Shown in pieces: positions 8,285 through 63,306 of a DNA stretch of 64,000 nt (its first letter is position 1; every line of letters begins with the position of its first letter). Below the pieces are notes generated by a model that was not told where the DNA came from, did no database searches, and saw only the letters and a program-made list of their open reading frames with translations. The translations under genes were made by a program, and so were the position numbers. This stretch comes from Raillietiella orientalis (taxonomy: Eukaryota), in assembly GCA_036172245.1 (NCBI GenBank), contig JAYWIR010000008.1:124001-188000 (forward strand). Reading direction: 5' to 3'.

Positions 8285-9712
8285 TTATGTTACATGTTCA
8301 GATGTTTCCAGGCGAACAGATTGAAATGCAGCAATTAGAGCAGATAACTGGATTTTTTCAGAACTTCCTGCCAATAATCGATACTCAATGTCTGCCAACT
8401 TAATCAGTAGTTGAATACGAATAGTATCTGGAAAATCGACTAAACAAAAACAATTCCAAAAGTAGATCCATTGCACTCACTAAGATGAACAAAACGATGT
8501 GTCTCTGTTAGAATATCTTGTAATGCTAAACCTTTTAATTGTTTCAGTTCTATGATATCTTTAATAAGTTAAGGAATCCCTAAAAATTTGTTCAAAGGAT
8601 ACTTTTATATGCATTTACAAAATCTTCATTCAACATCCAGTGAATCATATTCTGTAAATCTTCTTTTAATGGGTGTCCCGTACATGTGTACACTGCACTT
8701 TCAGTAACTTGGGAATGTGCTAAAGATGTAGACTGAAGAACATTAAGTGCTCTACGCATATCACCTTGGGATAAGGCAACAATTGCTTGCATTCCATCTT
8801 CAGTCACAGGAATGCTGTAGCTTGCATAAGCAATTTTGTCAAAATTCATGGATTTTACCTTTCTTTGGAAATGATATACTGCAGTCTTGGCAACATCTGC
8901 TGTTGAGTCAGGGGACCGAAGCGAAAGCGAGTACACCTTGATTGCAATGCAGGAATGATTTTGTTCAAATAATTGCAAATCAGACAGAACCGGACATTTT
9001 CAGTAAATTTTTCAATAACTATAACGTAGGAATTACACAGTTATGCATCATAGGAATGTACAGATATTTAAACTATTGACACACATCACCACATTGCATT
9101 TTTTACACGTGAAATTCACAGACAGTAGCAAACGAAATGAAAAAATGAGAAAAGACAACATACTCCTCCTCAATGCATTTTGGGCATCATGGGTTAAAGC
9201 ATCTGCTTCATCCAAAATAATTAATTTCACTCCTGAACTAAATATAGTTCTAGTACTTGCAAAATTTAATATTTGAGTACGAACGACATTAATTCCTCTG
9301 TCATCTGAAGCATTCATCTCTAAAACCTCGGATACAACGTTTGGAAATTTTTGAAGATTTTCTTACCATCGAGCTAAGTTTTTCTTTGGGATATAACCTC
9401 CTTGCACAAGCAAGTATAGTAGAGGTTTTTCCAGTACCAGGAGGTCCATAAAACAAAAGATGTGGCAACTTATCTTCATCGATAAACTTACAGACTAAAA
9501 AAAAAAGCATTCGTTTCCTGATTAATGAAACCATTCTGAAAACCGTTACTAACTGATTTTAATGATGTCTTCATGGGAAATGAGTTCATCTAATGTTTTC
9601 GGGCGATATTTTTCTACCCTACATGCGATCCTTCAAAAGAAATAGATTTGACGGTGATAACTCACCAAGGCAGATCGGGACTTGGAATGCTGGAGCTCAC
9701 CTCACAATTCAT
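8285..9712 (-). CDS. RFC5: Replication factor C subunit 5 (clamp loader AAA+ ATPase), 8 coding exons, 335 aa
   Basis: Exons 9712-9666, 9618-9554, 9494-9367, 9326-9164, 9018-8859, 8814-8603, 8558-8481 and 8439-8285 give 1008 nt in frame. Motifs: LPWVEKYRP, Walker [28 protein letters not shown], Walker [13 protein letters not shown] ([10 protein letters not shown]), [11 protein letters not shown], and the RFC5-type C-terminus [11 protein letters not shown]...LADIEYRL...[12 protein letters not shown]. Confidence 0.95.
8559..8602 (-). other. U12-type (minor spliceosome) GT-AG intron, 44 nt, RFC5 intron 6
   Basis: The intron reads GTATCCTTTGAACAAATTTTTAGGGATTCCTTAACTTATTAAAG. It has the U12 5' splice-site consensus GTATCCTTT and the branch site TTCCTTAAC, with the presumed branch A 10 nt before the 3' end. 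Removing it restores [19 protein letters not shown]. Confidence 0.9.
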
Positions 9713-10814: not shown

Positions 10815-10823
10815 TGTGACACA
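10815..10823 (+). repeat. Target-site duplication, left copy (TGTGACACA)
   Basis: An identical 9-mer occurs at 13071-13079. RT-like coding sequence begins immediately after this copy. Confidence 0.7.
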
Positions 10824-13070
10824 CGCAGGTCACCCAATGGAGGCCAATCTCAATCCTTAACTCGGATGCCAAGTGGTTGGCAAAGATCTGGACCAACCGC
10901 TTAGGCAAGGTTATGTCGAGGCTGATTTCTCCCGTCCAGACATGTGCGGTACCCGGACGCCACATGTCGGACAATATTAAGTGCGCGCAGGCTACCGTGG
11001 GACTTAGCCGATACGTCGGCGAGAACCTGGTGCTGGCGTTCACCGACATGGAGAAAGCCTTCGACACCATCGACCATGGGATGCTGCTGAAGATTCTGGA
11101 AAAGCTAGGACTTCCGGAATACTTCAGCACCTTCGTGGAAATGATCCTCCAGAATCAAAGTTTCCGGATAAAGATCAACGGTATGGAAACAGCAGCTATT
11201 CGAATGGAACGAGGAGTTCGGCAAGGCGACTCGCTAAGTCCGATGCTGTTTTTTATCTACATGGAGGCGCTCTCTTCATTCATTGAGAAGAGTGGGCGAC
11301 TACAAGGGATGGATATTGACAACCAGAAGCTCACCCATCTCGCCTAAGCGGATGATCTTTCCTTCTTCATCAGGGGAAAGAGGGATCAGCAAGCGTTTTT
11401 GGATGTGGTGATGCTCATGAAACAGGGACTGGGCCTGAAGATCAACGCCCAGATGAGCCAGCTTTTGCCCGTCGGAATCCTGGACCTCTCCGCTCTCACG
11501 GGGAGAGAATTTCTAACGGTGGACATGGCCAAGTCTCTGGGAGTCTACATTGGCGACGACTCTGCGTCGAAGCTACTGTGGAAGGAAATCCTGGGGAAAA
11601 CGGCAGAAGAAGCAGCGAAATACACCCAACTGGGTTTTGGCATGAAGCGAAGGGCCAACCTATGGAATGGAGTCCTCCTTCCAAAGGTACTCTTCGGAAC
11701 GGCCTTCGACAAGTTGAACAAAGAAAGCACCAGAGAAGTGGAAAAGCTGCAGAGAAAGACATTGTGGGGACACTATCGCCCAAGAGTCCGGTTGAAACAA
11801 CTGTCCAGGGAAGAAGGCGGTTCCGGGATGAAGTCGCCTGCACACTCCATGGAAATCATGGATACGCGACACATACTGGACATAGCCACCCGCTGGGATG
11901 ACTGGCCGTATGCAGCACACAGGGCCTACGCGTTGTTGTTGAACAACTCGAAAGGCCTGATGACTGCGCTGCTAGGCCGAACAGGGGAATGGTGAACCAT
12001 CGACCCCACCTGGACAAGAAAGCAAAGGCTAGTGCGAAAGCACAAGATAAAAATCGTGCCTAAAAGTAGGGAACTCTGGCAGGAGGAGTCCATCCTGGTG
12101 ATCCCATGGATGCTTCCGGTCTCCCAAGACACGAGAAGCTGGATCTACCAGCGGTCCAGAGTTACCCTACAACGCATCCGGGAGTTCAGAAGAGGAGGAT
12201 ACCCACATTACACTCGTATACTTCGGTATATAGAGATGATGGTGGGTAGGTTCACCCATATGACCCGCGAAGTGTGGATCAACCACGATGACCTCGCGTG
12301 GTCCAGGGTAACCAAGGTGAACCTCCGAAGAATGATTAAGGATGAGGACCAAGACACCAGTGCCCTCCAAGAAGCCGCCGATCGCTGCGGGAGTAACTGT
12401 TTTAACCTGTTGGCGATTGGCACGACACTCTGGAGGAGTGACCTTCCGCCGGACTCTCTGGACGACCTCCTGATGTTCTATCATGGAGGAATCCAGAGCA
12501 GGTCCAGGCTCAAGCACTTCACCGGAAGACGGGCAGATGAAGACTGCACGGCATGTGGAGACATCGATACGAGACTTCAAGTCTTGAGGTGTCCCACTTT
12601 GCTACGCGACTGGCTGATCCTGAAAAGGATCATAGAACAAAACAACAAGTCCGTGATGGAAATCCTCGCCGGGATGTTTCAGGGAGATGGTAATGTTCGC
12701 TGTTACAATCCCATGGTGAGGACGACCATTGCCCTCTTCATCACCGCCATACTTGTGCGGTGGTGGAAGATGAGGAAAGCCAGGAGAACCGGAACCCCCA
12801 TGGAGATCCTACAAGGACTCATCCGGAAGGAGATCGGTATCAGGAACTGTGGACGACTCCAAGCCTGGACGTACCGATTCATCCTGAAGAGTATTGAGGA
12901 CGACTCCCGGGACCAAACAGCTGGAAACCCACCCTGAGTGCAGAACTTTAAATAACCCAAAGGACCTTCAAGTGAAAGTGGCATTGTATTGTGTGAATGG
13001 AAATTGTAGTATGAATGCTTAAAAATTGAAAAATAAATTTACTCCACCCCTTGTGGGACTTGGGGAAAAT
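10824..13070 (+). mobile_element. 5'-truncated L1/Tx1-like non-LTR retrotransposon (RT plus C-terminal zinc knuckle), inactivated by two nonsense mutations
   Basis: One reading frame from about 10826 to 12937 (track ORFs 10877, 11399 and 12032 share a frame): WRPISILNSDAKWLAKI, DMEKAFDTIDH, GVRQGDSLSPMLF, LA*ADD (stop at the Y of YADD), KSLGVYI, EEGGSGM, CTACGDIDTRLQVLRC. It is GC-richer than the flanks, has a short 3' UTR with AATAAA, and is bounded by a TGTGACACA direct repeat. Confidence 0.9.
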
Positions 13071-39104: not shown

Positions 39105-42100
39105 TTCTTACTTTTCATTCAATTTTACAGTCTAAATCATTCACATTTCTTTGTAGAACATAGAGCAACTAGGAATGTGTTATTGAGTTAAATGACACAT
39201 TTCCAAAAATCAATTATTTTGGGAGTCATCAGCACATTCCTCCATCAAATCATGTGAATCATTCTTATTTTTTATTTTTATTCCTTTGAAGCACTAATAA
39301 CATAATTTTCAAAAAAGAAATTTCAAAATTTGCAAAGGCAGATCTAGAAAGCACAAATAGGGCTAAATAAGAATCACTCAAAGGCTATTTCAATAACAAT
39401 TAAAATCAAATGGAACACTTTGGCAATGTCGATTTAATTGTTGGTTTCTATACAATACATGCAGTTGACATGTCTATTCATTTACATCACTTAATTTTAG
39501 GGTTTATTATTTACTGGATTCAAGATAATCAAATTGAATCTTCAACACTTATTCATGCAGAAGCCTTACCACCTAGGTTGCCTTCATTAATCCTCATTTG
39601 TGGAATAAATTACTACACAAATTGTTTAGCATGCTGGGACAAAGTAGAAAACATCAAATCACCATTACTATGGGCATATAAAGTAAACTTTTATATTACA
39701 ATCTAATTAAGATCTGTTATTCTGTTATTAATCAAAGGTTTTGGTCTTTCTCTTAATGATGGAAGTCATTCTATATCTTATTTGGTATCCCTTCCATATT
39801 TTAATTTATGAAATCGCAATATATTCATGGTCCTTGGTGAGTACAGTCATTTTGAATTTTAGAAATAAATTGAAAAACAAAACAAAACAAAACAAACAAA
39901 ATCTATCCACATAAAAAAGTAACTTAAATAGCTTTTGCAACTATAATGATAAATAAAAAATAATAAACCTGGTGATGCTTGCCTTAATTATTTCTTAGAA
40001 AAATGTAGTATGAACAACTCAGGGTATGGAAACATGTCACAGAATCCAAAGAGTTTGCTAAATAGCGTAAATGAGATGCAACTCTAATGTACACATTTTA
40101 TGTTCATGCTACGTATTTCATAAAATCTTAATTATTGGAAATAAAATAATGAATTCCTATGGGCTGTTATTTAACAATAAGCATTCAAAACACTATTAAG
40201 ATATTTGGCATTTATTGAATAACCATGTAAATTTGGTTGACCCAACATACAGCTTGCCAAGTGTGATAAAATGAATCAAGAGTCCAAGGCTAACATAAAT
40301 CACACACTTATGTAACATACTATTACATCAATGCCAATGTGGCACTGTGATAAAAGAAATAACGGAACTTAAACCTCAAAACTTGGTCAACAAAAGTCAG
40401 TTGGCATGTCCATAAATTAAATAACTTTCGATAGCGATAGTCCCTCCCAATAAGTACAACTTCTTATTTGTAAACACAAAATATGTGAGTAATTCTACTG
40501 TCTGAATGAGGGTTTTGCTTGATGAAATCTACACACGGAAAGAGGAAGTGGCTCAAGCACTAAAAACTCTAATTTTTCCCTGAGAGGCCAATGTTTCAAC
40601 TACATGCACAAGGCAGTGAACATTTACGTATGAACGTTAAAAACCAACATTTCCATAAATATTTGTGGTAATATGCGTATATATAATTCAAATTCAATTT
40701 CCTTAAACATTTTAACGCTTGGACATATCTCTGCGAAAATCAAATGCTCAAGATAAATGGATATAATATGCTACTCGGGCTCAAACACGTGTTAAGAAAA
40801 ACATACCTGATCAAAAAACAACACCAAAGGAGAAATATGATTCAAGTGATTTTTGAAATCTGTGGAATAATTCTGTTTAATATAGTCATTAATTCAAGAA
40901 ATTGCTTTTCATAAATGACTAAAGGGTGATTTTAGTACTTGTGGGCATTTTTTGAGCCTTCGACGAAAATGGCTTTGTTAGAAAGTGTCAAACAAATGTT
41001 CCCTTTTTATATGACTACAAAAACGGAAGGTCAATTGTGCTGGAACGTGATACAACCGTTATTAAGTACTTTGGCATTAGTATTATTGTTCTATGAAGCA
41101 GAACGTCATGCAAATTTATTTCAATGTCTATCCACGAGGTAATAAGTGAACGAATGGAATTCACTGATTTTACTTTTAGTTTTGATAGCAAATTATGTGA
41201 TAACAAAAAGATTCCTGAGCAAAACACACAAAGAATGGAGGCTAAACGAAACAACCTTGGCAAGGGACCATTACTATCAATTTTTCTGTCCGGTAATGGC
41301 TGAATTATGAAAGTCAACTCTTGAAAGCTTTACTGAATTCTTCAATAATGAAACAAGATAACATGAGAAAAAAAAAAAAAAATTGGATCAAGTGTGTGAC
41401 TAACTTAATGGAAACAATGAATCTCACTCAAGTCTAAACACTGATTTGAGTATTTTGGTTTGCTATTCTCATGGATTTGTTTAACGATAGCTGTTGCGAC
41501 TTAAAAGAGGGGAACTGATGCTTAGCTCCTCCACATGGATGCATTTCACCAAACTTGTATCCTTTCCTGCTATCCTATGCAACGTTTCCGGCACCAAATC
41601 GCGGCCATAATTCACTGGGGGACCCCATAAATTGCATTCTTTTCGTGGGGACAAGCATACTTGACACAGCAAACAGCTTTCAAACACATACTTGAAACTG
41701 TGCAACTCGAGCAAACGAAGCAAAAATCGAGAATTTATCCACACTCTCGTTGATATGTGCGCATTATTACCATGCATGCATTCCTTATGGCTAAAATGCA
41801 TAACAATTCACTTCTTTTCTTTTCTTTCTTTCTTTCTCCTCCAAAGTTTTGGCATCTTGATTTCGGACTTTTGAACTATATAGGCTATGCCATCGAAATG
41901 CAGCCCATACCGGATTGGGGACAGGAATCATCTCAGCATTTGAATTCGAAATTCATAGTACGAAAAAATAAAATAAATAACTGAGCTTGTTACTCGAATC
42001 ACATGATATGGAAGGGTGCATTCTAAATATACATGTTGCACGCGCTCATTCACCTCATATGTTAGGGAATGAGCCAACTTCACGTTCTGGTTGGCCAACC

Positions 42101-44538
42101 TTAGGCTGCTCATCGCCGCTTGTCACACCTATGTGCATCTTTTTTTTTTTCTTCCTCACGTCCGTTTTGTTTTTCCTTTTTCTTTTCTTCTTCTTCTTTC
42201 CTTTTTTTTTGGTTCTTCCTTCCTAACCACGACGAAGAGGAACAGCACAGCTCTGCAGAAGGATTTCACTCCCGAGTCTTCACGATTCATGAATCTCTTC
42301 CGTTTAACGAATACTGAAAGTCGGCAACCATTGCAGTGAGATGGTGGCCAAAAAAAAAAAAAAAAGAAATACTTTTCGAACTGCTCGTGAACATTTTCCA
42401 TTCTTCACGACAGTAAATTTACCAAAGCCTCTGGAAAAAAAAAAAAAAGAAAAAAAAACTTGAGACGGAAACTCGAGACTGTGTGTGTAACACAAGTACG
42501 TAATACCAAAGACGAAAAAAAATACCACGAGGCAAAACTGCATTTACAAATTGAGCTGCAGATTAACTTACAGGTGGTTTATTTATGTTGTGGAAATTGT
42601 AAAAATTCTTGCAACTGTATTATTCTTTAACGTAAACGCATTCCGATTAATAGAAAAGATAAAGATGAATCAAAGTGGCCCGAAAGACTTAAAATGAGAT
42701 TTTTCATTCCTTAATATTTGAATAGCAGTAGTGATTCTATTGTTTATCTAATCAAACAAGTTCAGAATCACAAGTGCGGGATAAAAAGTATTAGTAGATT
42801 CTTCTAGTCCCGTATTCGTCACCGATTACGATGAAGTCCCCAGGATCCCTCCTTTTTGCAAACAAACATCAGTGCACTATCACATGACCAACCGAATGTG
42901 GTGAAAACCTGCTGACGGCAGTTGATGCCAAGTGGGAGGTGGTTATGCACCGTGCATTCTTTTCCACCAGCATCAGATAGTATACTTGGAAGTGACACAT
43001 TGGATGGAGTCTTTACTAGTTTGACATTTCGAGAGTTGTATCTACATGTGGCTGTTTGAAACCGTATAATCTTAAGTGGAGGGGTTTATGTATGGTTGCC
43101 GGATGCATTTAGTTAATAATGATTCGCTGTAACACGAGTTTTTGCTTTTTTTAATCCTTTCTAAATACATCTCTTTTAAAGGATTTGTAACGGCAGCTTT
43201 TCATCGAGAGAGAGAAGGGGGTGGGGCACTCCTTTTCATCACTTTTGATGATTTGCTCCAGGACCAATTTCGGAATTTACTGAATATTGAAATCCCGGTT
43301 CTTCTTATTCAAGTAAAGGTTTCGTAAAGGTTCATCTGGATATGGGTAGCTGATTTGTTTGATTTGTGTGCTTCCCTGTGTTCACATATGCAAAACGAGA
43401 CTTTTTAAACGTTAAGAAGCCCTTCTGTTCTTTCCTTTGAAATCTAACTCATTTAAGGTGGATTCTTTTCATCTAGAGGTGTTGAACGCCTCCTTCTCCT
43501 TAACTAGGAATAGTGTCGACAAAAATACCGCCAACAGGGTTTTGAGGAAGTCAATAAGCCTCAGAGTATTCTCTTTAATAATGATAATGATGTATAAGGG
43601 TTTATATTAAAGATAAATCGTTAATCTGATATGCATAATTGTTAACTGTATCAATTTCATACTGGTGGTTTTTCATTATATGTGAATTCTTTGCAGTCTA
43701 AAGAGCAAATCTTTTTCCCACCCATATCCAAGTCTTACTGAAATTCCTACACATAGAATAAACTTGGTTCTGTATCCAGTGCCATGTGTTTCCTCATAAC
43801 AAGTTTGCAAAACTTTTGCTTGCCAAAGTAAGCACCTCGGAAAAAGCATCTTGTGCATGGAGTTCTCGTGACACTTAAGCTGCACTAAAAGCAAAACACA
43901 TGTTACAGTGGGTGAGTGGATCCACTTTATTTTCACAATGTTATATAAGAAAAAAGGCTTTTGTTGAACACCTGGATGAAAGAGAGCCTGATGTGAAGGG
44001 AAGGGTTATTAACGAGGTTTCTTCCATAATACGATTTGAACCTTAGATAGGCAAAACAGCGCAGACGCACTCCCAACAACTGCCGACCAGGGAGAGTCTA
44101 TGCAGGTATCTACAAGAATGGGAATTGCTTAAGAGTCGGCTTAACGATATCATCTGGTAATAGAAGACAAAAAAGGGTAGCATCATGTAAAAGACAAATA
44201 GTAGTATGACGAATGACTAAACGAAGCATCTCTGCATTCCTATGGATCGCTCACGAGCAGAATTCGGTGAAAAGAGCTTGAGAAATATAGATGCTGAGAT
44301 GTCATGCTCTCTGAATACGAACTACGGGCACATCGAGAAATCGCCCGATGATGCCAACTCGCACACACCTCTCCTTCAAAGTGAGGATCGCACCACTCTC
44401 CTGAAGGATTTTGGAGAGTTCCTCGTGCCATTCTCTGGAGGCCATTTTTTGTCGAAAAGCTTCGCCCAGTCGCGCTCGGCAAGTGGCTGTTTTTCTGCCA
44501 CGGTGTGGATCGAAACGGAGGCTTTGGGCGAGGTGCAC

Positions 44539-47500
44539 TTATCCAGAGACGAAGACAGTGTCCGGATTCAACCGATGGCCGTTCCTATCACAAGACTGCA
44601 GATGCTGCTCGGTTGCACTGATTCCGGACTGGATCTTCTCCAGCTGAAGCTTCAAGTCTTCGATTTTACGCTGATACTGCAACGACAGAACAACAAGCGC
44701 GATGTCTTTCAAGCCCGCGGACGCGCTCACGTATTCGATCCTGGATTCCGCATCCCAGGAATACTGGAACACTTCCGATTCGGAATCCGAAGTGGAATCA
44801 CACTCGTGAAATTTGCTCCTGAGGATTCCCTGCTTCCGGTGGCTATGAGGGTACCGGGCGATCGACTGCATGCTGCAGTGTGGGTTAGTTCTGGGCGCAG
44901 CTTTCAATCGAATAGGGCGTTCGATGCAGGGGCTATCTGCGCTCCTGCCGCTGTCTGACGAAGCCGATGCCACAGGCACTTGGATGGGCAACAGGTCGGG
45001 AGAGCGGTACACTGGATTGTTGAACACCAAAGGTATTCTTTGCACTGGGCTCGAATCGTACGTGGCGAAACTCTGATACCCGGAGGAGGGCTGGGAGACG
45101 GACAGCTGGCTACCGTGCGTACCGTTTTCTATGTAGCGCAAGAATTCGTCGAGTCTCCGGTACTTGGAATTCTGCATCACGGAAACGTTTTCTCCGTTCA
45201 AGTTCAAGCAGGCGTTCCAAGGGAGGGTCGCCGACTTCCTCTGCAGCGGAAGGCACTGGAAACTGCCGACGTCCGCGGGGGCGGCGTCCACTCGGAAACT
45301 GGAAGAAGCCCCGTGTTTTTCCGGGACCTTGCATATTTCCGGGATCCCATGGATGATCGCTTGCAGGCATATCAGTTCGTGAGACTGAAAGGAGGGAGGG
45401 GAGATTCGAGGCGTTCGCCCTGAAGTCGGCTCCCCTTTCCTTCTCTTGTTACCTTGCAAACGACTTTGCTCAGAAGATCGGCGAGCACTTGATGAGCAAT
45501 AGACAGCTCTTTGCCCAAGTCGATCCGGGAATCCGTCCTATTAGGGGGGCGGTCAAGGTTCTGAGGAACCTGCAAAGTCTGCTTGTTATTAGTGCCCGAG
45601 ACACTCTCGGGAGGAGAGAGAGAGACAGAGGAATGTGCGTCTTTCATACCGAAATCTGAAAGAGAAAACTCCTCATCGACTCCGATTCGCGCTCGACGAA
45701 CAGGTTCAGGAACTCCATGAAATTCTCCTTCCCCTCAAAGCGCACAAAGTTTGCCAAAGTTTGCAAAGTTTTGGCGACCAAGGTCAGACTGCGCAAGGTC
45801 TTGTCGCTGGGGTACTCTTCAGGGAGGAAGCAGCCACCGAAGCGGCGTAAGACGCACGGAGCTCCCACGAGCTCTCGGCTCTCACCTTTCGTAAGCTTGA
45901 AGAGCGACGGCGACAAGATAGCCGGGCAAAAAAATCTAAGAAAAATGGACGCGCTGATCACTTTGTCTGGAAGCAATGGTTTCCCTAATATGGTCAGCCG
46001 GTCACGAATAGTGGCGAAGCAGGATCGGATCTCACTGCCGATACCAGATTTAGTTCTGAGAGGACCGAGATGACACTTACTTCGGGAAGATCGGGTACGA
46101 GTCCAGTATTTTACGCCATATTGTCTTCACGGTGTTCTGCAGGTTGCGCTGGTTGCGCTTCAACAAGGCGCGCGACACCACCTTCGCAGGGTCAACCTCG
46201 CAATCCGCCGGCGACGCCAGGTAGTCGCGGATGATGTCTCCCAGCGTCTGCTGGAGGTACTGCTCTCCCACCAAGCGCATGTACACCTCCATGGCTTTCG
46301 TTGCGAGGGAATTCGCTCTGAATATCACGTGACCGTCGTCTGCTCGCGACCGTCCTGGCTAGAGCGGGGGCGGGTCAACGGCTCCGCGAATAGCTACCCT
46401 TCAGCTCCATCTTCTGCACCTCCATGACTACCAGATCCGCGATGAAGACGATGCTTTTCTTCTGGTGGTGCATGATCCGCGTGAGGCAGTCCGACAGCTG
46501 CTCCTTCGATTTGACTGCTAGGGCGGGCTCCACCAGATCACACACTGCTTGGTAACCCGTTGTTAAGTACTGAAATTCAAACACGACCAGGGTCACAAAC
46601 ACACAAAAATCAGGATTCCCGGAAAAGACAACTGAAACTGGCGTTGCGAGTTTCGCTCGTTTCGGCAGAGAGATAAGAGGGAAGGGGGAGGGGGGGGGGG
46701 AGAAGAAGGGAGGAGAATGAAAAACCGAATTTCAGCTTTCGCGCTGTTCCTTCTCATTGCATTTCTCTAGGGCTGCTCATCAGGAGGCGCTGAGTTCTTC
46801 CAGAGCAGCGCTGCTTGCGGCGGAAGAACGGCGCGGTGGCAGCGCGCGCCCTAAAGGTGGACGCGCGCTACTCGAAAGTGCGGTTAGCACTGCGACCAGA
46901 CGATCCCTCGGAGCAGCAGCGCGATTCGGGAACGGGGGGCACGTGCGACGGTTCGCAAAGCCTCCGGCGCGAGGGGCGCGCGTGCCACGCCGCCGTGACT
47001 CGCGCACCGTCATCCCCTGTGCCGTCCGGATAGCGCCGCGGGCCTCTCCCGGGAGAGCTCGCTCCTCAAGAGTCATGCACCCCACCACCCCATGCGCGCC
47101 TCTCAGAAAGTTCAGAGATCCTTCCGCATTCCCCCCCCCCCTCCCCCCCTTCTAGCGCACAGCCAAGGGGCCCGGGTTTCCTTCCCCCCAAGCGGTTTCG
47201 CGAACGGTTCGAGCGCGGCTCGGAAGTTCGCGCCCACGGACAAGGGGAGGATCCTCCCCCTGTGGTCAGCGCCACGAAGCCTCGTTAATCGAGCTCCGCA
47301 AGAGATCAAACAACGTTGCGGAGCAGAGCCCGGCTTCTAGGATCGCCCATTTCATGCTTGATGACCAATTCCGTTAAGAGGACGAGCCTGTTTTCCACGG
47401 AATGATGGCCGGCACCGCCATTAAGGTATTCAGGCGGAGGGGACCAAATTACCGTACCTTCCTGTTAATCACTCTATTGCGAAGGCATTCCGGGGTTCAT

Positions 47501-50500
47501 CTTTGGTTTCGTACAGCTTTCGTCCCCCCCCTCCCTCCTTCCTTCCCTTTCGATTGATTATTGCGCGCATCTAGTCCGACAGCTGACAGCTTACTTTCTA
47601 CTTGACGGGACCCGGTTGGTAACAAAAGTAGAAGACTTTTGTTTGCTCTCCGTCAGCGCTGGTTCCAAAGTTCGTTCCGCAACCGACGGACGATCCCCGC
47701 AGCCTGGATTCCCACAGGCCTCGCCGAGGAAGGCGCGCGTTTCGGGACCCGAAACGGCGGCCCTCCGCCGGGAATGCTAACACCAAGGGAAACGCCAGGA
47801 AATCCGAGTGTGCCGCACGTGTTTTATCGAGCTGGTGATCCCGAGACACACACACACACACAAACGCCATTCGTCCGGGCTAACCGCGTGCCTGCCCTCC
47901 TGAAATGCCAGGAGCCGCCGTGTCTCAGGCATTCTCATGTGCTCGTGACACGCAAGTTGCTGAGCCCTCCTCTCTGGAATCTTCCAGAGTGGTGATGAAA
48001 CCCTCTTGAGTTCTTCTGTCTTCGCTGCTTTTTCCTTCCAGCTTTTTTTTTTTTGTTCCGGGTTTCCCCCCCCCCCCTTTTTTTTTTGAAGGTGAGGTGG
48101 AGGAGTCTTCACGTGCTGAGTAACCGTTCGCCTCCTTTTTCAGGGGGGTGGGGGGTGACGGAGGGGATCACGAAGCTCTTAAACGCCCCCGAGGGTTTAA
48201 ATTATAGGCGGATACCCCGGTGTGGGACCACCTTATGGATCCAGGAAAGGAATCCGATGCTTTTACGCCTGGGGAGGGATGTCCGAAAGGAACCCTCCTC
48301 CTTATTCTCTCAGGAGGGTCCCGCCGCAAGGGAATCGCTTCTGGTTTTCCTCCTCTGAAGAGAAACCCCAAGGGATGCCTCCTTGATTCCTAGAAGGACC
48401 CGGAAAGTCTATTCCGGCCAGTGAACGGGGGGTGGGCATATCCGGCTTCTACCAGTGCAGTCGCACTTGAAGCGCGCGGACCAGCCAGGGGTCGTCCAGC
48501 GGGACGACCCTCGACGTTAGGAGGTTCTCTGGAACCTTCCACGAACCGTGCGGCCTGGCCGCGAGCTGGATCGGCGGGCGTGTCTCGGGCAAAAGCTAAA
48601 ACGGTATCCACGGATAGAAAAAAAAAAAACGAAAGGGTTCGACCGACCCCATCCGGAAACACTGGAATAGGTCCAGGAACGATCCAGGAACGCTCTTCCT
48701 CGAGTCGCGGATCTACGTAAACGCGGAAGGGCGTGAGTTTCAGGGTGAAAGACGCAGACTTGAAGAGCTCGGGGCGGCCAACTTCAAAGGGACCTCGCTC
48801 GGAACTTCGCCAAAGGTTCCCTTGTTTCGAGCTCGTTTCGAGGGAACGCGATTGTTCTTCTCCTGAACACGCGAGAGCGACTGCAAGGATAAACAAGAGT
48901 GAGGCCAGAGGGCGACAGAAGCATCCAAGGAAACGCAGATGCTTCTGGGGCCTTCTTTGCTGCCCTAGGTAACGACGGCGATGCTTCTCGAGGAGAGTCA
49001 ACGGAAAAGAGTCGCTGGATGATCCTCATCACCTGGACTGGTTCGGGTTTTAAATAGCTTAGATGGTCCTGAGATCGAACTTTGCAAAGAAGTCTGAAAA
49101 TAGAACGGGATGAAAGTCAGGTGCCAAGCGGAGCAAACAAACGACGGCGAGGACGCATGCGCAACAGGGCGTCGGCGACGGAGCACCACCACCATGCCTG
49201 CCTGCGTGAGGCAGATTGGGGAGGTGGGGGGGGGGGGGGGGGGGACCTCCGAACGTGCCGTGCGCCTTCGCCGTCAGCAGCAGCGGCTCAAACGTTCCGT
49301 GCGAACTGAGGGAGAGTGCGGCACGAAACGTGCGGAACTTCAAAGGCAGCAGCCAGGTGGCAGCACGGCTCAACGAAAGAATGTCGCCGATGAGCTCTCT
49401 TCCAGGGGCTGGGGAGAGTCGTCACTTGAAACGCCTGACGAAATCGCGCCACTTTGGTGCGTCGCTGGCGGCATCACTTGACGTGAAGCTGTGATGCGTT
49501 CCGCTTTGGTTCGCAAAAAAAAACAATCCGCCAGGTCGCGAACAGGCGAAAGACAAAGCGAAACGAAAACCCAAGTGGTCGACGGCCAATTCGCCGTGCT
49601 TGTTTCAAGGATCGAGATGACGATGATAATCAAAAGTGGCGTGGAACCTCCTTCCCAAGTTTTTCTAGCATGCGAGCCATAATCCATAAAGCGCATCGAT
49701 CCCCTCCCCCCCACTTGGCGACAAGAGCAAATCGTTCAGCTCCCAAGCCACGGACCAATCTGCCGGCCGACTCACAGCCGCCATGTGCACCTAGAAAGAC
49801 CACTTTTCGAATCCACCTTACTCCCATCTCCCCAGCTACATAATCGTGGCTTCCACTCCTTCATCCCGCCTCCCTTCCAGTACAGCCCTGCTCCCCAACC
49901 CTCTCTCCCTTTTCTACTGGCGCCGTGCGCGGGAGGAATTCGGTCTCGAGGAAACCTGGCATTCCTGCCACTCTGCCACATCCTTCTGCTCGCCCCGCCT
50001 CATTCTCCCTCCAGCTCGCACTCGATCACCCGGGAACCCCTGCTCCCCCGATGAGGGTGGGCGAGAGCCGACCCCACCTGCGAGGAGGGAGCAGGCGACA
50101 GGAAGAGCTGGGAAGGGCGCTTAGGGGGACACTACCGACTACGTAAGAGGCGACAGAAGGAGAGGTTCAAAGGACCGATTAAGGAGACAGGAAGCACGGC
50201 GGTGTCCGCCGCCGCTGGCGCATTTGCGGAAGGAACGGGAGCAGCAAGCGCAGCGGGGGTGCCTAGGTGCGCTTGGCGACCTCCTTCCGCGCGTGCGCTC
50301 GGCCGAAAGCCCTAAGGCCGAAAGCGCCGGACTGCTCCACCGGGTCGAGGGGGCACCGCCAGTCGGTCTGCAGAAGCACCACCTGGCGTCACGCCGGGAA
50401 CGATCGCGCCGAACCAGTCCGAACATATCAGGAGCGCGCAGGTGCGCAGTAGAACCGTGGTGGAGGCAGCAGCAGCTCACCGCCGCCAGCGTGCATGCGC

Positions 50501-53500
50501 GCGCCGCGGCGCTGGGGACGACAGCGCACGCCGGAGTAGGAGCAGCTTCCCCCTCCTCCCCCCCCCTTCCCCTTTCCGGAAGGGCAGGTATCTCCCCTGC
50601 ACAGAGTCGCGCAACCAGGCACAGTCTTGTTCGACGACGCCCTGCTTCCGTCCTGCGGTATCCTTCGTCTCTGCTGCCAACAGCCTTTCGAAGGGCACGG
50701 CAAAGTGGAGAGCGGACGGGAGCGAGGGGGGAGGAGGGGGGAGGTTCTGGGGGTCGAGCGAAGAGCTCGTGGCAAGGATAAACTCGAGCGTCCAGAAGGA
50801 GCTGCCACTACTCGGCAGCGCTCAGGGTCAGCACCCCAGGCTCACGTGTGCAGTTGTAGGGCACCGTGAAGCTGCGGGTGCTCGGACGAGCCGTCGTCCT
50901 CTTCGTTTCCAGGGAGAGCAAAAGTTTCGCGTCCCCTCGCCAGCTGAGGGCGGGCCATAGCTGGTCCCACCTGCTAGGAGGGAACAGGCAACGATGGGAG
51001 CTGGGAAATGCGCTTTGTGGGGACGGGGGGCGGCGAGAGGAGCTTTTCAGCGGGAAGGAGAAGACGACGACGACGGCGAACAGACCGAGCCGTTTTTCGA
51101 CTGTCTGCGTTACGCAAGCAACGGGAAGGCACAGCAAGGGGCTCAGGAAGGGGTGGGCGGGGCGGGTGAGGAAAGAGTCGGGAATTCACGAAAAAAAAAA
51201 AAGGCGACTATCCTCTTCGAGAGGTGCAGGAGAAATGACGGCATGCCCTCCGTGGCATCGGAGCAACGAATTTGCTCCTCCAGAAAACCAGTCCCCTGTT
51301 CCTCTTCCTCCACCCCCCCCCCCCAACTCCAGCCTTACCTCTACCCATCGGAAAGGAAAAATCACCCTTGGGCGAATGGATCGGCTCGCGTGTCGCTTTC
51401 CGGAAGCACGCAAAGACACGCGAGCTCGTGCGCGCGGCACACGTGGGTGGAACGAAGCGATATCGGCTTCTGACCTGCGGCGCTCGTTCCTCCAAAATTA
51501 CGGGGGGTTCGGGTGGAGGCTGGAAGGGCGGCGGCGCGACGGTGCGCGCGGGAGCAATCCACGAAGCGCGCGCGGTGCGGGCATGTGCCGCGAAAAGCCG
51601 GCCTTTTTGGCTGGTGGGCGCGCGGATTCCACGATCCGCTTTCGGATCCCCACTTGGGACCCCCAGCCACTCCCGGACCGGGGAGACCGGTCAGGGGGAG
51701 GAAAGGGGCAACGTCTGCACGACGAGCAGCACGCGAAGGCGAGGCGAAGTGGCAACGGGTAAGAAATCGAGAAAAGGCAGGCGGGCAAAGAGAAATGGAA
51801 CGAGGATAGCTTCCGACTACGTTTCCGCAGTAACCGGTTGTTGCCACCAGGTGCGCTCAACCAACCCGTTGTGATTGGGAAGGGGGATGAGGCATCTTTA
51901 GGAAGGGAAGTCTTGTGCTTCACTACGATTAGCAACGGGAGTTCTCCGTTCCGGTTCGGTTCCCGTGAAGACAAATTGAGGAACGGCTCTGTCCCGGAGG
52001 CTGGGCATGCGGAGGGCTAGATGCTCGAGTGTATCCGTTTTCAGGGTCTCCAGCAGGTGAATCGTCAGACACACACACACACACACACACACACTCTAGC
52101 GGTTTCCCGCTTCTATAGGAACCACACAGTTCGCCACCATCCGGACCGGGCGCACTTCGCCATCGCATCCGGTGTACGGAAAGAGGACTGCGGGAGATGA
52201 TGCCTGGAATCGACAAAAAGAAGAGCTGCTGCGTGTGTGTGTGTGGGGGGGAGGGGGAGGTTCGAGACAACCTCGTCGCATGGTGGAGAGGATCAAGCGA
52301 ACAAAAAAAAAAAAAATTCAGGCCGCTTCGAGGCTAAGCCCGCCAAGTGGAGTACAACGCGGTTCGCGCGCCGCTCGTTTTCCGAGCGACAACGACAAGG
52401 AGAAGAAAGGATGGAAGCAAACGAACCAAATGCCATGGGGAAGAGGGACCTGAAGCTCTCCGTGCAGGGGCGTTCGCGGAGCCGCGCCCGCAGCACCAAG
52501 GCGACAGAGTCCCAGCCGGCGGAAGGTAATATCTCGAAAGGGAAGCGGAATCTGAGGTCTGCAAAGAAGAAAATCGGCCGATCCGTGGCAGCACACGTCC
52601 AGTGAGAACGCAAAACACAGAGGAAAACACCCTAGCAACGGGAGGTTCTCGAGCGGATGACCACCCGGGGGAGTAACCGGACCCGACCCGCTTAACGTCT
52701 CCTATCTGGCAAGAGGAGGCGCAGTCAGCTCGGTATAACGCCGTGGAAGCGATGAGGACGCGAGGGGATAAGGGGAGCTTTCCAGAAAATTCCACCGATG
52801 GAAAGGAGGACGCGCAAAAGGCGGGTTCAAAGACGTCAACCGGCATCCGCAAAAGGGAGTCCCCTGACGGCGACCGCTTGGGCGACAAATTGTCGAGAGG
52901 GAGCGACGCTTCCCAGGACTGGGGTGAACAGCACAAGAGCCCCTTCGACCTCTCCTCACCGGTGGTGGTCTCGACTCGTTCGCTCACGGGACAATAGCTC
53001 GGTGTCGCGCAGGCGCTCTCGTGCGACGGTCAGGTGCGCACGCGCAGCTGCATGGGATTCGCCGCGCAGGTCCTGGACCACGGGAGGCTCTTACCTGCCT
53101 ACCCCACGCGGTTTTGCAGGAAGTACGCGAAAATGTCAAGGCGTGTCCCAAATTCAGGGAGCCGATCGGATGGAAGCTAAGCGGGCCGGGCACGCGCGCG
53201 CGCGCGCACGCCCCAGTCAAAAGGTCATTTCTGGAGTTCACCGAGAGTACCCCCGGCAGCTTTTCCTCTACCGCCCACTTTCTTTCCCTTTTTGCGACGC
53301 CACTACTTTGGTGAGCTTTGCGCAGGGGCAACATCACGGTCGGGGACGGAAGCGGGAGATGTGGTTACTGCTAAGGGAAAACAATTCGCGAAAAGCTGGC
53401 TCGTCGTCAACGTCCACAGAACTTTCCGCTGGCTCAGAACCCAGAAGAACAAACACACGCAAAAAATGACTTTCTTTTTTTCCTGTCTTTTTCTTTTTTT

Positions 53501-54790
53501 TTGCAAACGGTTTCGCCAGCCGCAAACCTTCGCCTCTGGATTTTGTTGACATGCGGTAGCCGCGGTAACCGCGTTCGGCGCGGGCAGCAGCGCGAGGGCG
53601 TTGGCGAACGCATGCCGCGTTTCCGGAAACGTGGAAATTACGAAGGCCAATTTCTCCTTTCCCCCCCCCCCCTCTCCTCCTCCTCCTCTCTGCTTCTTAC
53701 TTTCCTTTTTTCTTTACTTTTTTTAAAAAAGCAAAAAACAAAACAAAACAAAACTGGCAGGTGCTTTTCTTCCCGCGTATTTTTTTTTTTTTTTCACCTA
53801 TCCGAAAGGTAACGACAAAGATGGCTTACGCGCAAGAGATCCTTGTAGCAATGCAACGGAAGTATTGTGAGCGACTGGAATTTGCATTTGATCCTCAGGG
53901 ATGGCTTTGGTCCTTTCGATGTCTCCTTCGACAGGCACGCCTGGTACCATTTTTCCACCATGTAGCGACAGGTGACGTCTTGTGCTGGGATGAGCACCGT
54001 ACCTAATTGGGGGATGGAGACGAGCTGGTTTGCGGGGGGGGAGGGGGCGAACGGTTGTTCCCCCGTACCTATCAAGTGCCTCCTGGCTTCCTCCTTCTTC
54101 TTGTGCTCCGGCTGCCGGTACAAATTCACCTGGATGGTCGAAATGGGGGGCAGAGAAAGAAACTCGAAACGCTCGCCCCAAAAGCACAGCTCCGTGTGGA
54201 GCTTGGCCGCGGTCTGCGCGTAGGGCGACTCGTCCAAGCACAGCTCACAGAAATATCTAAAACCCAAAGGTGGACGTTTCGGGAGTGTGCAACGGTTTAC
54301 TTTTTTTTGGGATGCAAATTTTTTGCCTCTAAGACCCAAATAACGAGCGAATTTTCTTGCCGGGATTGCTGCTCGTTGCCGGGGCGATCGTTACTATGAC
54401 AAAAAAAAAAAAAAAAACACGAATTTCGTACTGACAAGTAAGGAGGATGACAAACCAGCACAGCTGCGGGATTCCTTCTTCGCTCCTGGATTCCGCCTGC
54501 GAGGTTTCGGACGCACGCGACCTGGTCTCGTCCGTCCTCGAAGGAGCACAGGGTTCCCTAGCAGCGCTCCAGACTGTTGCCATCTGTGCCGGGTCCTGGT
54601 TACGTAAAAGTAATTCATGAGAATGCGATGAGCGAAGGAGTGGAAACACCACACTAAAAGTGCACATTACTATGCCACTGTCCTCATTCCAGGTGGATCT
54701 GTCATTAAAAAGTGAGGTCGCACAGTCACACAGGCAACAACTCGGGAGACGGGATGAAAGAGGGAAAAACTGAAAGGAAACAAGCCAAAC

Positions 54791-54825
<35 letters not shown>

Positions 54826-56965
54826 CGAAGGAAAAAGAAAGAAAGAAGGAAAAAAAGAGGAGCAATCTGGGAAACACGGTATCCCGCAGGGACGGCGAAC
54901 CACGCACCCATTCTGACGTTCAACGACCCGCCATATTGATTTATTGAACAAACCCGAACGCGCCGTTAGCGAGGATGCACTGTGGAGCCCTCCCCTGGGG
55001 TCGCTGATTGGGACCTCGGCACATCCCCGACGTGTCGCCTGCACGCTTCCGCAAAGTCCGCGCGACTCCAGGGGAGCAGGATCGGTGGTGCGCGTTGTCC
55101 GCGCTCGAAAACGACCCGAGGGGCCCTTCTGGATTGCCCGTGTCCGTGCGGAGAAGCCATTTGGGATGTCGGTAATCGCCGAATTTCCATGGTGAGCGGA
55201 GAGGATTCCTTGCGTGGACGCACCTTCTATGGAAACCGTGTGCTTCGTTAAGCTGCGCTCGATGCCCCCCCGGAGTGTGTGCTGCGAGGACAGTTGCAGC
55301 ACACACTCGCGCGTGCGCTGCCGCCATGGAGCACTGCCCGATCTCCCCCCCCCCAAATACTCTACCACCGTTCCCAGAGCAACACGGCGCCACTCGACGC
55401 TAGCGAGCGAAATGCTCCCAACGGGTTTAAAGAGGCGCGTCGCCGCCAGGTTGTTCGGCAGCGTTGGCCCGGGTGTCAAAAACGCGGAATCTGGCTCCGC
55501 GCACCTTCCGCACCTACGCCGCAGGGAGTGGGAGCAATCGATCCCAATTTCGAGGGAGCTATTTTCGGAGCTTGGGTGTCTCCTCGCAAGATGTCTGTCA
55601 GGACACGTGTTCGGGCGCTTTCGGAGGCGTTTCGCCACATCCGGAGAAGTGCGTGCACAGGTAATACGTGACCCACCCACCCACCCCTCCCCCACGCGAG
55701 AGCGGAGGGAGGATCCGTGAGGGAGGTCGGAGGAATGCACCCCCGTCAAGAACACCAGACGACTTGTGCCATTTCCTGCAAAGGAGTCCCAAAACAAAAG
55801 CTATACCGTTTCGTACGCAGTCAACTTGTCCAGGTGCTCCCGGCAACTCGAGGCATGCACTGGCTTGTCCCGACGCAGCTCCCCCTTCCCCTCCACCGAA
55901 TCAAGGAAGACACCGGTGAGATGGAAAAGCAAAGGTCGTCGTCCTTCCTGCAGAGGGCAGTCGATCCCGAGCAGTTCCGCTTCCTTAGGGGCACGGGAGC
56001 AACTGGGATTCAGGGATTCCGTTCGCGCAATGAAATACTCGGGCGCGTGACAGTGGTCTCACTCAGACTGCACCGCGGGGAAGAGCAAGCCGAACAGATG
56101 GGTGGTCGCGATGGCGCACACAACTGGAGCGCGTTCTGGAAGTAATCGCGCGAACGACCGGGAACGAGCCGACAACAACAGAATGCTTCGAACTTGTCAA
56201 AAGGATGCTGAGGGGGAAGGGGGAACTCTGGAACAAAATTGCCCCGGTTCAATCGCTCGCGCGCGTCGTCACCGACAACTGGAGCTGCCGGGACACTACC
56301 CGACAACGCGCCAGACGGCATCACCCAGGGACAGTGTCACTTTACGCACGCACACACAAAGGGAGGAGGGGAGGGGAGGGGAGGGGAGGGGGGGGGGAAG
56401 GCCACAGTGCATCTCGACAGGGAGCACCGGGACGAAAATCGGGAACAGCAGCACCCTCTCCCTCTCCCTCCCTGCCTCTGCCCTTCCAACCATTCAGATT
56501 TCCTCCCCCCCACCCCGCCGTCAGGACTCGCCTTCGCTAGCTTCCAGTCCTGGGCCGCCACCACCGCCGCCGCCGCCATCGTTCTCGCCCGTCAACGATG
56601 GCACGGAACCACCGTTGCCGGTCGACGCTGCGGCAACGGCGCACGCGCGAGCCAGCGCAGCGAGCGGACTGCAGCGAAATCGGCGCGCGTTTCCATGTGC
56701 CCCCCTCCCGTCTCCGCCTCCTCGCTCCATGCACAGAGAGCACACAGTTTCTTCTGCCAAGGATAGCGGAACCCCCCCCCCCCTCCCGCTGCTAGAGGCT
56801 TGGATGCACAGTCTAAGGATTGGTTGCTCAGGGATTAAAAAAAAAAAAATTACCGCTCTACATCCGGCTGCTTTCTCTCGAATTTCGCCGCACTTCTAGT
56901 TCGCTTCAGAGGAACACTTTTCAGCGACCTCTTTCTGAATAAGCTCTGGAATGAAAGCAAACTGA

Positions 56966-56999
<34 letters not shown>

Positions 57000-59577
57000 G
57001 AGGGGGGGGGCGTGGAACACACAGGAGGAGAGGCGAAGACAGAAAGAGGTGGAGGAAAGGGGGGGAAGAGAGAAAAACATTGGGGGAACAGGAGAACCGA
57101 CCGCGCGCGCGCGTCCCGAAAGCGAAGACACCGTCCTCCTGCCGGCGGAGGAGGGGGGGGGCGTCCCAGGGGTGGCCGATTCGTCACAGCCTGCCCTCCG
57201 CCCGTGCCGGTCGGCAGGGGTTGCGTGCCGCCTGCCCGGGACGGCGTTCCAGGAAGGCACGAAGGATGACGGTGCGAGGGCACGTGCAAACAAGGAGGCG
57301 AGGCGAGGCGACCGGCACAGCGAGGGAAGAAGGATAAGAAGAAGAAAAGGTCCTGTTGCTGCAGCTGCTGGGTAGACAAAAGGGCGGACGCGTCCGTCTT
57401 AACGCCGTCCGTCGGAACGCTTCGCCGGTGACGTCGCAGCGGTGTCTCCCTCTTTTTTTTTTTTTTTTTCCTTTTGATTGCTCGCGCGCGCTCAACGGAG
57501 AACGAAACGTGGAGGAACCGGTCGCCGAAACAACCGTGGGGGGCGAGGGATCTCCCCCCAGGCCCAGCTGGAGTCCTGGGGGTTGCCCTACGGATCGTGC
57601 AGCCACTTCCCTGGGCTCCGAAGGACCGCGCTGCCGTCTCACAACGGCGGCGGCACTCGCCTCAACCCCCCGCGGAAAAGGGGGCGCCGCCAGGTCACGG
57701 GAGCAGCAGCGGTTTCAATGAGAGGTCCCTCCGGAAGACGCCAGGGATCGCTGTTGCCTTCCTTCCCATCCTCTCCCCCAGGAGTGCACACTGCTGCTGC
57801 TGCTGCGGGCTGCCCCCTCGTTGCCCATGCCACGAACGTGGGACGCACCGCTCGGACATGTGGAAAAGAGGAAGGGAAAGGGAGGATGAGGAGGGGGGGG
57901 AAGGACAAGAGAGAGGGAGAGGAGGAGGAGCGTGAGGAACGCGGCCGTGAAGTCGGCATGGAGTCCTCCCCCCCCCCTCCCCACTCCTATCCCTCCTCCT
58001 CCTCCCTCTCGCGCACCGCATCTCACTGCCTCGTCGGGTGTCTCCGGCGCAGCCTCGGGGCGCCCCGCACGACCGGTCTCCGTCAGTCCGCCCACCCGCC
58101 CGTCCGGGAAGGCACTTTCCGCCGCCGACACGGTGCCGCCGCCTCGGCGTCCTCGCCCGCATCTGCGGACTCCCCACGCGCCTTCCGTTCGGTTCGCTTC
58201 GTCTCATCGCACGCAGCTGCGCGCTCTCTTCAGGATTTTTTTTTTTTTTTTTTTCCCGTCGTCGTTTTTAGCTTTCTTTTCTTCCCCGTTCGACTGAGGG
58301 AACGATGCTGCCTGGCAACGGGTGCTGCAGTAGCAGCCTGCGGCGGAGGCGGCACGACTGCGCCCGCTACCTGGTGGAAGGGGGGAGGAGAGGGAAGTAC
58401 TTTGTGGGGCTTCCCGGCGCTTCGGCAACCGTGGCGCGCTCGCGCACGCGACTTCGGCTGCACCGGTCATGCGATGACCGCGGGGGTGGGAGTGACCTCG
58501 CAGGAGGGAGAAACGGTAAAATTGGAGGGGGCGTACCTTCGCCCCCTCCCCCCTCTCCCTCCCCAAACGCAGCAGCTTCATTTAGGGACTGCCCCGCAGG
58601 TAGGCAGCAGGGTGCTGAGGGTGCCCACCACCGCGGGCCGCCGCGGTTCCCACGCAGTATACGCGCGCGCGGTTCGCGCACGCGCCGTCCGGACACGGTC
58701 GCCGCTCCGAAGGACGGCAGAGATCGTTGGTCCGCTGGACTCCTCTCGCATGACCCACGTCCCTCTTGACCCCTCTTTCAGCCTTAGAACGACCAAGCAG
58801 CAAGCCTGCCGCGTCGGATTGCAGGAAAAGCCAAACAAAAAAAAAAAATAAATCGCGGAGATGGGTCGGGCCCCCCTCCTGCCCCTGTGACAAGGAAGAC
58901 GCCTTTGGGCAAGTAGCGTGGGCTTACGGTTCTTTTTTCGAAAAGAAAGGCAGGGCGTTTTCTCCCCCTTCTCCCCCCGCTTTGTTTTCCAAACAGCTTG
59001 TGGCTGGCCAGGTCACGGGGTCTGGCGCGGCATTCGACTCGAAGCACTTCGTCAGATAAGAAGACCGCGCGTCACGCAGCGACACGCTTCAGCACAACAA
59101 GGAGGAGGAGGGGGGGGGAGCTCCTGGCTTCGCGTGCCGGTAAGCGAACGGGGGGATCACCGGTCAGTGCCATCACTACTGGTGGAAAGCTGCGCGAACG
59201 GCAACGCGCGGGGCACAGGAGCGAGGGACTCCGGGGCGGCTGCCGTCCAGGGAGCCAACCCGCAGCGACAGGAAAGACAGCCGCAGGTATTTCCCTTTCT
59301 TCTTTTTTTGCTCTCGCCCCCGCCCCCCTTTTTCCTTACTCGGTCAAGAGGAGGACGGGGGGTGGGGGGAGAGGCTCTCGCAAGAAGCACCGCCATCAAG
59401 GTTAGAAGAGCATCGATCCGCAGAAACAACCGAGAGCAAAGCAGCATGTTCGGAGGAACCACCCACTTACCGCTAATCTGAAGGACGCGCCGACGGTTTT
59501 CGCTCCATGGGAACAGCCCGACGGCGAGGCGAGGGAATTCCCCTTCTGGTTCCGGATCGCTCTGTCGTAAGAGGAAT
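44539..59577 (-). CDS. raskol: Ras GTPase-activating protein of the raskol/gap-2/RASAL2/DAB2IP/SynGAP family (C2, RasGAP and coiled coil); 5' end and extreme 3' end uncertain
   Basis: In-frame exons: 59577-59471 (DSSYDRA), 56945-56854 ([25 protein letters not shown]), 54653-54456 ([11 protein letters not shown]), 54393-54301 ([12 protein letters not shown]), 54256-54069 ([23 protein letters not shown]2), 54002-53830 ([19 protein letters not shown]), 46569-46398, 46339-46081 ([13 protein letters not shown], arginine finger), 46034-45886 ([20 protein letters not shown]), 45816-45650 ([28 protein letters not shown]), 45605-45453 (IDLGKELS), 45384-44731 (PLVFNNPVY), 44676-44539 (YQRKIEDLK). Confidence 0.88.
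52068..52094. repeat. (CA)n microsatellite
   Basis: Direct read: acacac... run. Similar runs near 47847, 54794 and 62628. Confidence 0.9.
56973..56999. repeat. (GA)n microsatellite, which is a (TC)n pyrimidine tract on the minus strand upstream of the 56946 acceptor
   Basis: Direct read: agagagag... run. Confidence 0.85.
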
Positions 59578-60358
59578 CTGAAAAGCATCGTCGGTGTAGC
59601 AGCGTTCGCGTTGCCAAAGGGCTCGCTCGAGCTCATTGTGTCGCCTGCTGCTGCTGCTGCTGCTACCGGAAAGGACAACCATCGATCTCGCCTAAAGGTC
59701 AAAAATGTGTGACGAAAGGACACGATGGGAAAAAAAGATCTGTCAAGGTGGCACGCTTTTGAAAAGCCACACGCGCACTCCGACCAGCGTCTCTTCTCCG
59801 CCTCTCTCTTCTCTCTCTCTCTCTCTTTTTCTATACATAAAGGGGTAAAAATCACGATCAGGGATCAAAGAGTCTTTATGTACCAGATAGCCAAATGGTC
59901 ACGTGCAACGGCAGCAGCACGGTGGTGCGACGGATGGCGCGCAAGCATTCTTTTTTTTTGTAAGCACCCGGAAAATCAGCTTTTTCTTTCGCCCGATAGC
60001 TCCTTGCTAAATCTACGTGGTCATTTCCGGCAACTACGTGCGGGGGGGGGGGGGGAGGTCAGGTGTTGTTCGTTTACCGCGCTCACGTCAGCACCTCTAC
60101 CCACGAGAGGAGCTCTTGCTGTTCCTCGTGCACGAGCGCCCGCTGGGCAGCAGCCCAAAGTGACGGCGCATTTCCATTCTTATCTGCTCCGTCGCCGCCT
60201 GCGCCTCTACGCGTGAAGAGTTCGGTTCTGTTACCAGCACGCCCTCTCCTTCAGCGGCAGGACGGCTTGGTGAGCGCTTCTGCGACCACCCCAAAACTTA
60301 AATGCATTAGTTACATCCAAACAGGGTGCCCCCCCCCCCCATCCATCCATCCATCCAC

Positions 60359-60577
60359 CATGTGTGCTGAAGTCCACGTGCGCCTTCAACTTTGCTTTCC
60401 CCATTACGTCGACCTCCCAGCCCCAGAAGTCATCGTCGGCACTGATTTCATTCACAACCTCGCTGCGCATGCTCCACGCTCTTTCCCGTCTCCAAGGCTT
60501 TTCGTCCAATCGCACCGTAGTTGGGGACACGGGGTCAGTCCGCAATAGAAGCAACCGAAAGGCGTCCTCCATAAACA
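60359..60577 (-). CDS. Tentative upstream coding exon of the RasGAP gene
   Basis: CAG acceptor at 60578, an open frame FMEDAFRLLLLRTDPVSPTTVRLDEKPWRRERAW...STH, and a phase-1 donor (GTGGAT, weak) compatible with the 59577 exon. The DAF/VRLD words loosely resemble arthropod raskol N-termini as I recall them. Confidence 0.4.
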
Positions 60578-60823
60578 CTGCGCGAACGACGCGCACACGC
60601 GGAAACCACGGTTCCTGAGCTTGGAAAACTCGTTCTCTGGAGCATCTGCGCCTCTCTCTTCCCACCCCCATCTGACCCGACGCTGCCATGAAGTTTCACC
60701 GATTGATTGTCGATAAGCTGCGCGACGGTGTTTTTTTTTTTTTCAAAAGAACATTCGAGCAAAAATACCACATCGATCAGCGCACTGAAAAAGACACACA
60801 CACACACGCGCGCGCGCGCGCGT

Positions 60824-60825
<2 letters not shown>

Positions 60826-60861
<36 letters not shown>
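60826..60861. repeat. Poly(A) run preceded by (CA)n(CG)n
   Basis: Direct read: 36 consecutive A after cacacacacgcgcgcgcgcgcgtgc. Confidence 0.85.

Positions 60862-60864
<3 letters not shown>

Positions 60865-63267: not shown

Positions 63268-63270
<3 letters not shown>

Positions 63271-63304
<34 letters not shown>
63271..63304. repeat. (CT)n microsatellite
   Basis: Direct read: tctctc... run. Confidence 0.9.

Positions 63305-63306
<2 letters not shown>

Follow-up and report, generated by a model that had tools for sequence, protein, structure and literature searches.

A 44-nt RFC5 intron with complete U12-type splicing signals, probably inherited at an ancient position

The RFC5 gene of the window (the whole 64-kb stretch of DNA that was analysed, to which all positions refer) contains an intron of 44 nt, at 8602-8559 on the minus strand, that carries the full consensus motifs of the U12 type. 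Motifs and homology suggest that this is a real U12-type intron, most likely inherited at an ancient position and shortened together with all the other introns of a compact-intron genome, a reading to which we assign a probability of about 0.8. Present-day removal of the intron by a minor spliceosome of the organism is given about the same probability. The gene, which corresponds to yeast Rfc3 and codes for replication factor C subunit 5, and its relevant parts are located as follows.

8285..9712, minus strand: RFC5 coding region from ATG to stop, 8 exons and 7 introns, 335 aa (homology-guided model)
8603..8814, minus strand: RFC5 exon 6 (212 nt), which precedes the U12-type intron, aligned to human RFC5 and ending in AAA A before GT
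8559..8602, minus strand: predicted U12-type GT-AG intron of 44 nt, phase 1, after RFC5 residue 258 (motifs and homology)
8594..8602, minus strand: U12-type 5' splice site GTATCCTTT (exact motif match)
8577..8593, minus strand: 17-nt spacer from the 5' splice site to the branch site (counted from the sequence)
8568..8576, minus strand: U12-type branch-site motif TTCCTTAAC (exact match), in which the adenosines 8570 and 8569 are candidates for the branch point
8559..8560, minus strand: predicted acceptor AG, part of AAAG; no other AG occurs from the branch motif to the start of exon 7 (junction fixed by homology)
8481..8558, minus strand: RFC5 exon 7 (78 nt), which follows the U12-type intron, with a translation collinear with fish RFC5

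The RFC5 model starts with the ATG at 9712 and its stop codon ends at 8285; intron ends were placed manually on the sequence and verified with a script, which gave predicted intron lengths of 47, 59, 40, 145, 44, 44 and 41 nt. When the 335-aa product was aligned with a fish RFC5 of the same length (P0122), 226 of 334 positions were identical (67.7%) from end to end and no junction was gapped. The product contains the motifs GPPGTGKT and LDEAD and is collinear with RFC5 over its full length. Exon 6 alone, compared with the PDB, matched residues 194-266 of human RFC5 (6vvo_C) with an E value of 1.3e-27, whereas RFC2 reached only 1.4e-07. An exon-wise protein search with RFC5 gave 7 matches from 11 candidates and was of no use for taxonomy. 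Two further observations concern other introns of this gene. Intron 3 (9366-9327, minus strand), of 40 nt, has the unusual acceptor GAG and an internal GTATCC, and a bird RFC5 record (P0121) bears a 28-residue insertion exactly at the site of the last RFC5 intron of the window, which has the appearance of an intron that the annotation translated as coding sequence.

All 18 positions of the U12 consensus were matched in the 44-nt intron, with a 5' site of the form /[AG]TATCCTT(T), a branch site of the form TTCCTTRAY and GT..AG termini. After TTCCTTAAC, the last 9 nt of the intron read TTATTAAAG and end at 8559, so that the two branch-motif adenosines, 8570 and 8569, lie 11 and 10 nt, respectively, from the last intron base. 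This short distance, in a sequence with no marked polypyrimidine tract, can be set beside the optimum of 11-13 nt given for U12-type introns in a review. Excision of 8602-8559 joins the exons in phase 1 within an Asn codon (AAA-A + AT-ATC), and the resulting product, ..AYK-N-IIELK.., aligns without gaps to both human RFC5 (6vvo_C) and fish RFC5 P0122, the junction residues being K-N-I-I-E in the window and R-N-I-T-E in the human protein. The sequence-only reading had described a 44-nt intron with U12 motifs, a branch motif 9 nt before its end and conserved RFC5 sequence restored by excision, all of which was confirmed from sequence and homology, as was the gap of 17 nt (8593-8577) between the predicted U11 and U12 binding sites.

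In the splicing pathway that we propose, the U11/U12 di-snRNP would bind GTATCCTTT and TTCCTTAAC jointly across the 17-nt spacer, one of the two adenosines located 10-11 nt from the 3' end would form the lariat, and the AG at 8560-8559 would serve as the acceptor, so that exons 6 and 7 would be joined in phase 1 inside the Asn codon. No fold bringing the 5' and branch sites together was found in the 44-nt intron: its folding energy was -4.3 kcal/mol (z 0.11), and 92 of 200 shuffled sequences folded at least as well.

The sizes of the neighbouring introns were obtained from a set of 27 predicted introns of the window, 7 from RFC5 and 20 from UBR4, the latter found by a homology-guided junction search. 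Their median length was 46 nt and their range 39-145 nt, and since 23 of the 27 fell within 39-54 nt, the claim that the U12 intron matches the local U2 introns in size holds. Only one of the 27, the 44-nt RFC5 intron, carried a CCTTRAY motif or a 5' site of the U12 type. The set includes two poorly scoring UBR4 junctions (22930-22867 and 20483-20442), and at another UBR4 junction the second-scoring GT-AG solution (174) was preferred to an AT..AC pair (178) without U12 motifs. UBR4, which codes for an E3 ubiquitin ligase, is a large gene on the minus strand (16700-36850), and the 20 mini-introns predicted here, of 39-79 nt, are located in its C-terminal half.

The age of the intron position was approached by scanning metagenome contigs with the RFC5 alignment; 80 loci were kept (L005-L080 among their identifiers) and the exon ends of the window were projected onto each. 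At 72 of the 80 RFC5-like loci an intron with GT..AG termini was found at the same place and in the same phase. These introns represented 54 distinct sequences of 24-121 nt, with a median of 55 nt, although the two cases of 24 nt are doubtful. Seven loci, on short contigs that read straight through, had no intron there, and the remaining one gave no clear call. The presence of an intron at this site in 72 of 80 loci indicates that the RFC5 intron position is ancient. The metagenome introns and that of the window share codon position and phase and are of similar size, but differ in their signals: all 72 have U2-type 5' sites (34 GTGAGT, 9 GTGAGC, 5 GTAAGT and others), U12 motifs are lacking, and [AG]TATCC occurs in none of them. 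The 72 introns are substrates of the major spliceosome, and presumably arose by U12-to-U2 conversion. The occurrence of U2-type introns in 72 of 80 loci at a position that is U12-type in the window may thus represent such a conversion at one old position, and a position that is U2-type in many other eukaryotes would offer a clean case for studying it.

The sequence-only reading also stated that RFC5 is a minor-intron gene in other animals, and the supplements of Olthof 2019 and 2024 bear this out for human and mouse, with one catalogued minor intron of the gene in each. The human RFC5 minor intron is listed in the Olthof 2019 supplement at chr12:118027019-118027952, with a length of 934 nt, the 5' splice site GAAGTATCCTTT and the branch site TTTGCCTTAACT; the mouse Rfc5 minor intron is listed there with 422 nt and the 5' splice site AAAGTATCCTTT, which was scored 92.9. 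In Table S6 of Olthof 2024 the human intron is classed as 'minor' and as responsive in three of nine human conditions (MDS, U12 morpholino and U6atac morpholino), and the mouse intron as responsive in one of six U11 conditions (U11_E12). The window intron has the gene, the GT-AG subtype and the 5' splice-site 9-mer in common with both, and its 12-mer, which includes 3 exon bases, is that of the mouse. The branch core CCTTAACT is identical to the human one, and the full branch motif of the window is nearer to the consensus than that of human. The main differences are in length, 44 nt against 934 and 422 nt, and in the kind of evidence, since dependence on the minor spliceosome has been demonstrated for the human and mouse intron and is predicted from sequence for that of the window.

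The exon bases preceding the 5' site are GAA in human and AAA in mouse, and both fit an R/K codon followed by the A of Asn as in the window, an agreement that is weak when taken alone (about 1 in 16). Gain of U12 introns is rare according to the established view presented in a review. Given this rarity and the old position, the window intron is most simply regarded as the same intron as the RFC5 minor intron of human and mouse, an identification that draws on the three exon bases and on parsimony. RFC5 did not appear in those supplements of Larue & Roy 2023 and Baumgartner 2019 that were consulted, and a literature search on RFC5 (replication factor C) and minor or U12-type introns returned nothing on the RFC5 intron outside supplements.

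How often the motifs arise by chance was evaluated on the whole window. RTATCCTT had 8 matches in the 64 kb against 3.54 expected, a number that was reached in 3 of 100 shuffles, and TCCTTAAC had 3 matches against 2.19 expected, which was reached in 37 of 100. Either 8-mer taken singly is therefore not rare in 64 kb. A relaxed two-motif scan gave 16 matches against 15.2 expected and so had no power. The RTATCCTT at 18455-18448 (minus strand) is not a splice site and forms part of the UBR4 coding sequence. Four plus-strand sites inside or adjoining the minus-strand UBR4 gene, as well as one in the GC-rich part of the window, were rejected as splice sites by position only, and the site at 41557 was rejected because the surrounding DNA has no recognisable coding sequence. 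This last site, GTATCCTTTC, could be paired with the stretch 43497-43513, which consists of TCCTTAAC and 9 nt up to and including an AG, to delimit a U12-like intron of 1957 nt (41557-43513, plus strand); no coding sequence was recognisable on either flank of this candidate, which probably arose by chance.

The frequency of single motifs is also what could be said for the view that the 44-nt intron is an ordinary U2-type intron which happens to bear both U12 motifs, as the single 8-mers occur in the window at about chance frequency and the relaxed scan barely departs from expectation. The full pair within one defined intron is another matter. Under the composition of the other 26 window introns, the probability of ATCCTTT after GT is 1.3e-4 and that of TTCCTTAAC at any of 8 allowed offsets is 4.3e-5, so that the joint probability of both full 9-mers, ordered and correctly spaced, comes to about 6e-9 for any one homology-defined intron, and even 200,000 introns would be expected to yield only about 1e-3 such cases. 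As the vertebrate RFC5 orthologues also bear a U12 intron, we consider a chance resemblance hardly credible. A different possibility accepts the U12 type and shifts the main acceptor to the TAG at 8552-8550, which would give an intron of 53 nt and a protein shorter by three residues. Acceptors are usually of the YAG type, to which TAG is nearer than AAG; moreover, this TAG lies 9 nt further on, 19-20 nt from the branch adenosines, and keeps the frame, since 53 and 44 leave the same remainder. However, its use would mean that three residues supported by homology are lost, while N-I-I-E aligns without gaps to human and fish RFC5, and the 10-11 nt between the branch adenosines and the upstream AG are closer to the optimum of 11-13 nt. 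Use of the TAG as the main acceptor is thus very unlikely.

Loss of the minor spliceosome is a less remote alternative, though still an improbable one. The intron would once have been of the U12 type, the minor spliceosome would have been lost recently, and the major spliceosome would now remove the intron through intron definition, with U1 recognising GTATCC as a weak site and U2 taking TTAAC for its branch site. TTAAC, with which the branch motif ends, fits the U2 branch-site consensus yUnAy. The U2-type 5' sites of the window are loose as well: 10 of 26 have no G at +5, and one of them reads GTAACC. An Rfam scan of the 64-kb window gave 0 matches, and no minor snRNA gene was found within it. 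As to the position of the organism, protein searches with UBR4 found no close relative, the best identities being about 52-61%, and the UBR4 fragment grouped inside the arthropods, sister to insects, in two trees. In the quick tree, which is unfinished and has a long terminal branch (0.9), the pancrustacean set received an SH-aLRT of 97 and the sister position one of 87; in the FastTree, the arthropods were supported at 0.97 and the sister position at 0.82. According to Larue & Roy 2023, minor introns have been lost or nearly so in springtails, mites and some copepods, and the loss reported in these neighbouring arthropod groups makes a loss in the lineage of the window not far-fetched. Against this reading, none of the 18 consensus positions has decayed on a branch that is long and fast-evolving, and neither the bases +7 to +9 nor the TTCC upstream of the branch has a role in U2-type splicing. 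The metagenome loci serve here as a control: as none of the 72 U2-type introns at the same position keeps [AG]TATCC, no U12 relic remains at this position where the major spliceosome acts on the intron.

The sequence-only reading had stated that minor introns lack the very short size class seen for major introns. This is no longer supported in view of the survey of 3000 genomes of Larue & Roy 2023, in which the median lengths of minor and major introns correlate across species (Spearman 0.903) and in which the minor introns of Blastocystis have a mean below 42 bp and a median of 39, with all four minor snRNAs present. Minor-type introns this small are, according to that survey, already known in another organism. 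In Blastocystis sp. subtype 1 (Gentekaki et al. 2017, as cited in Larue & Roy 2023), as in the window, minor introns of about 40 bp stand beside major ones that are equally short. This organism is, however, a stramenopile and not an animal; 77% of its minor introns are AT-AC, many are in phase 0 and they are probably recent gains, whereas the intron of the window is GT-AG, in phase 1 and at an old position. The insects with few minor introns described in the same survey resemble the window in belonging to a related arthropod lineage and in keeping minor introns in old genes, but the minor introns that they keep are out of proportion in length, at about 200-1000 bp where the major ones have about 100 bp, while that of the window is at the modal major size.

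The suggestion that so short an intron may need a streamlined U11/U12 complex found no support. In the A complex no more than 50 A separate the 5' splice site from the branch site (Turunen et al. review), and, by our own estimate, a single strand of 17 nt could reach across about twice that distance; a streamlined complex is therefore not needed on geometric grounds. The literature search, which covered statements in print, returned no mention of any U12 intron at or below 45 nt in an animal, and the RFC5 intron is possibly among the shortest U12 introns of animals. We regard as tentative, and on balance rather doubtful, the broader proposal that a 44-nt intron with 17 nt between the U11 and U12 sites is processed by the minor spliceosome of an animal, in an arthropod lineage that kept minor splicing and shrank its minor introns to the modal major size, the opposite of what happened in insects. 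If true, the intron would be a naturally occurring minimal substrate on which to study the structure of the U11/U12 di-snRNP, and, if minor splicing is confirmed, the 17-nt spacer would be a natural lower-bound substrate for the proximity of the U11 and U12 sites in an animal. The case also extends to an animal the rule by which minor introns become shorter along with major ones, and it shows that an old U12 intron of a replication gene can retain perfect signals at 44 nt.

Outside the two genes, some other features of the window were observed. Between RFC5 and UBR4, open frames resembling a non-LTR retrotransposon are present at 10820-12937 (plus strand), with a reverse-transcriptase domain (RVT_1, E 6.4e-21). 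Near 44 kb the GC content rises from about 30-40% to 52-63% (44000-64000), a jump that may mark an isochore-like transition or a join in the assembly. In the GC-rich half both strands have long open frames, and there are simple repeats and, at 45644-46126 (minus strand), a piece of a RasGAP domain (Pfam, E 1.3e-08).
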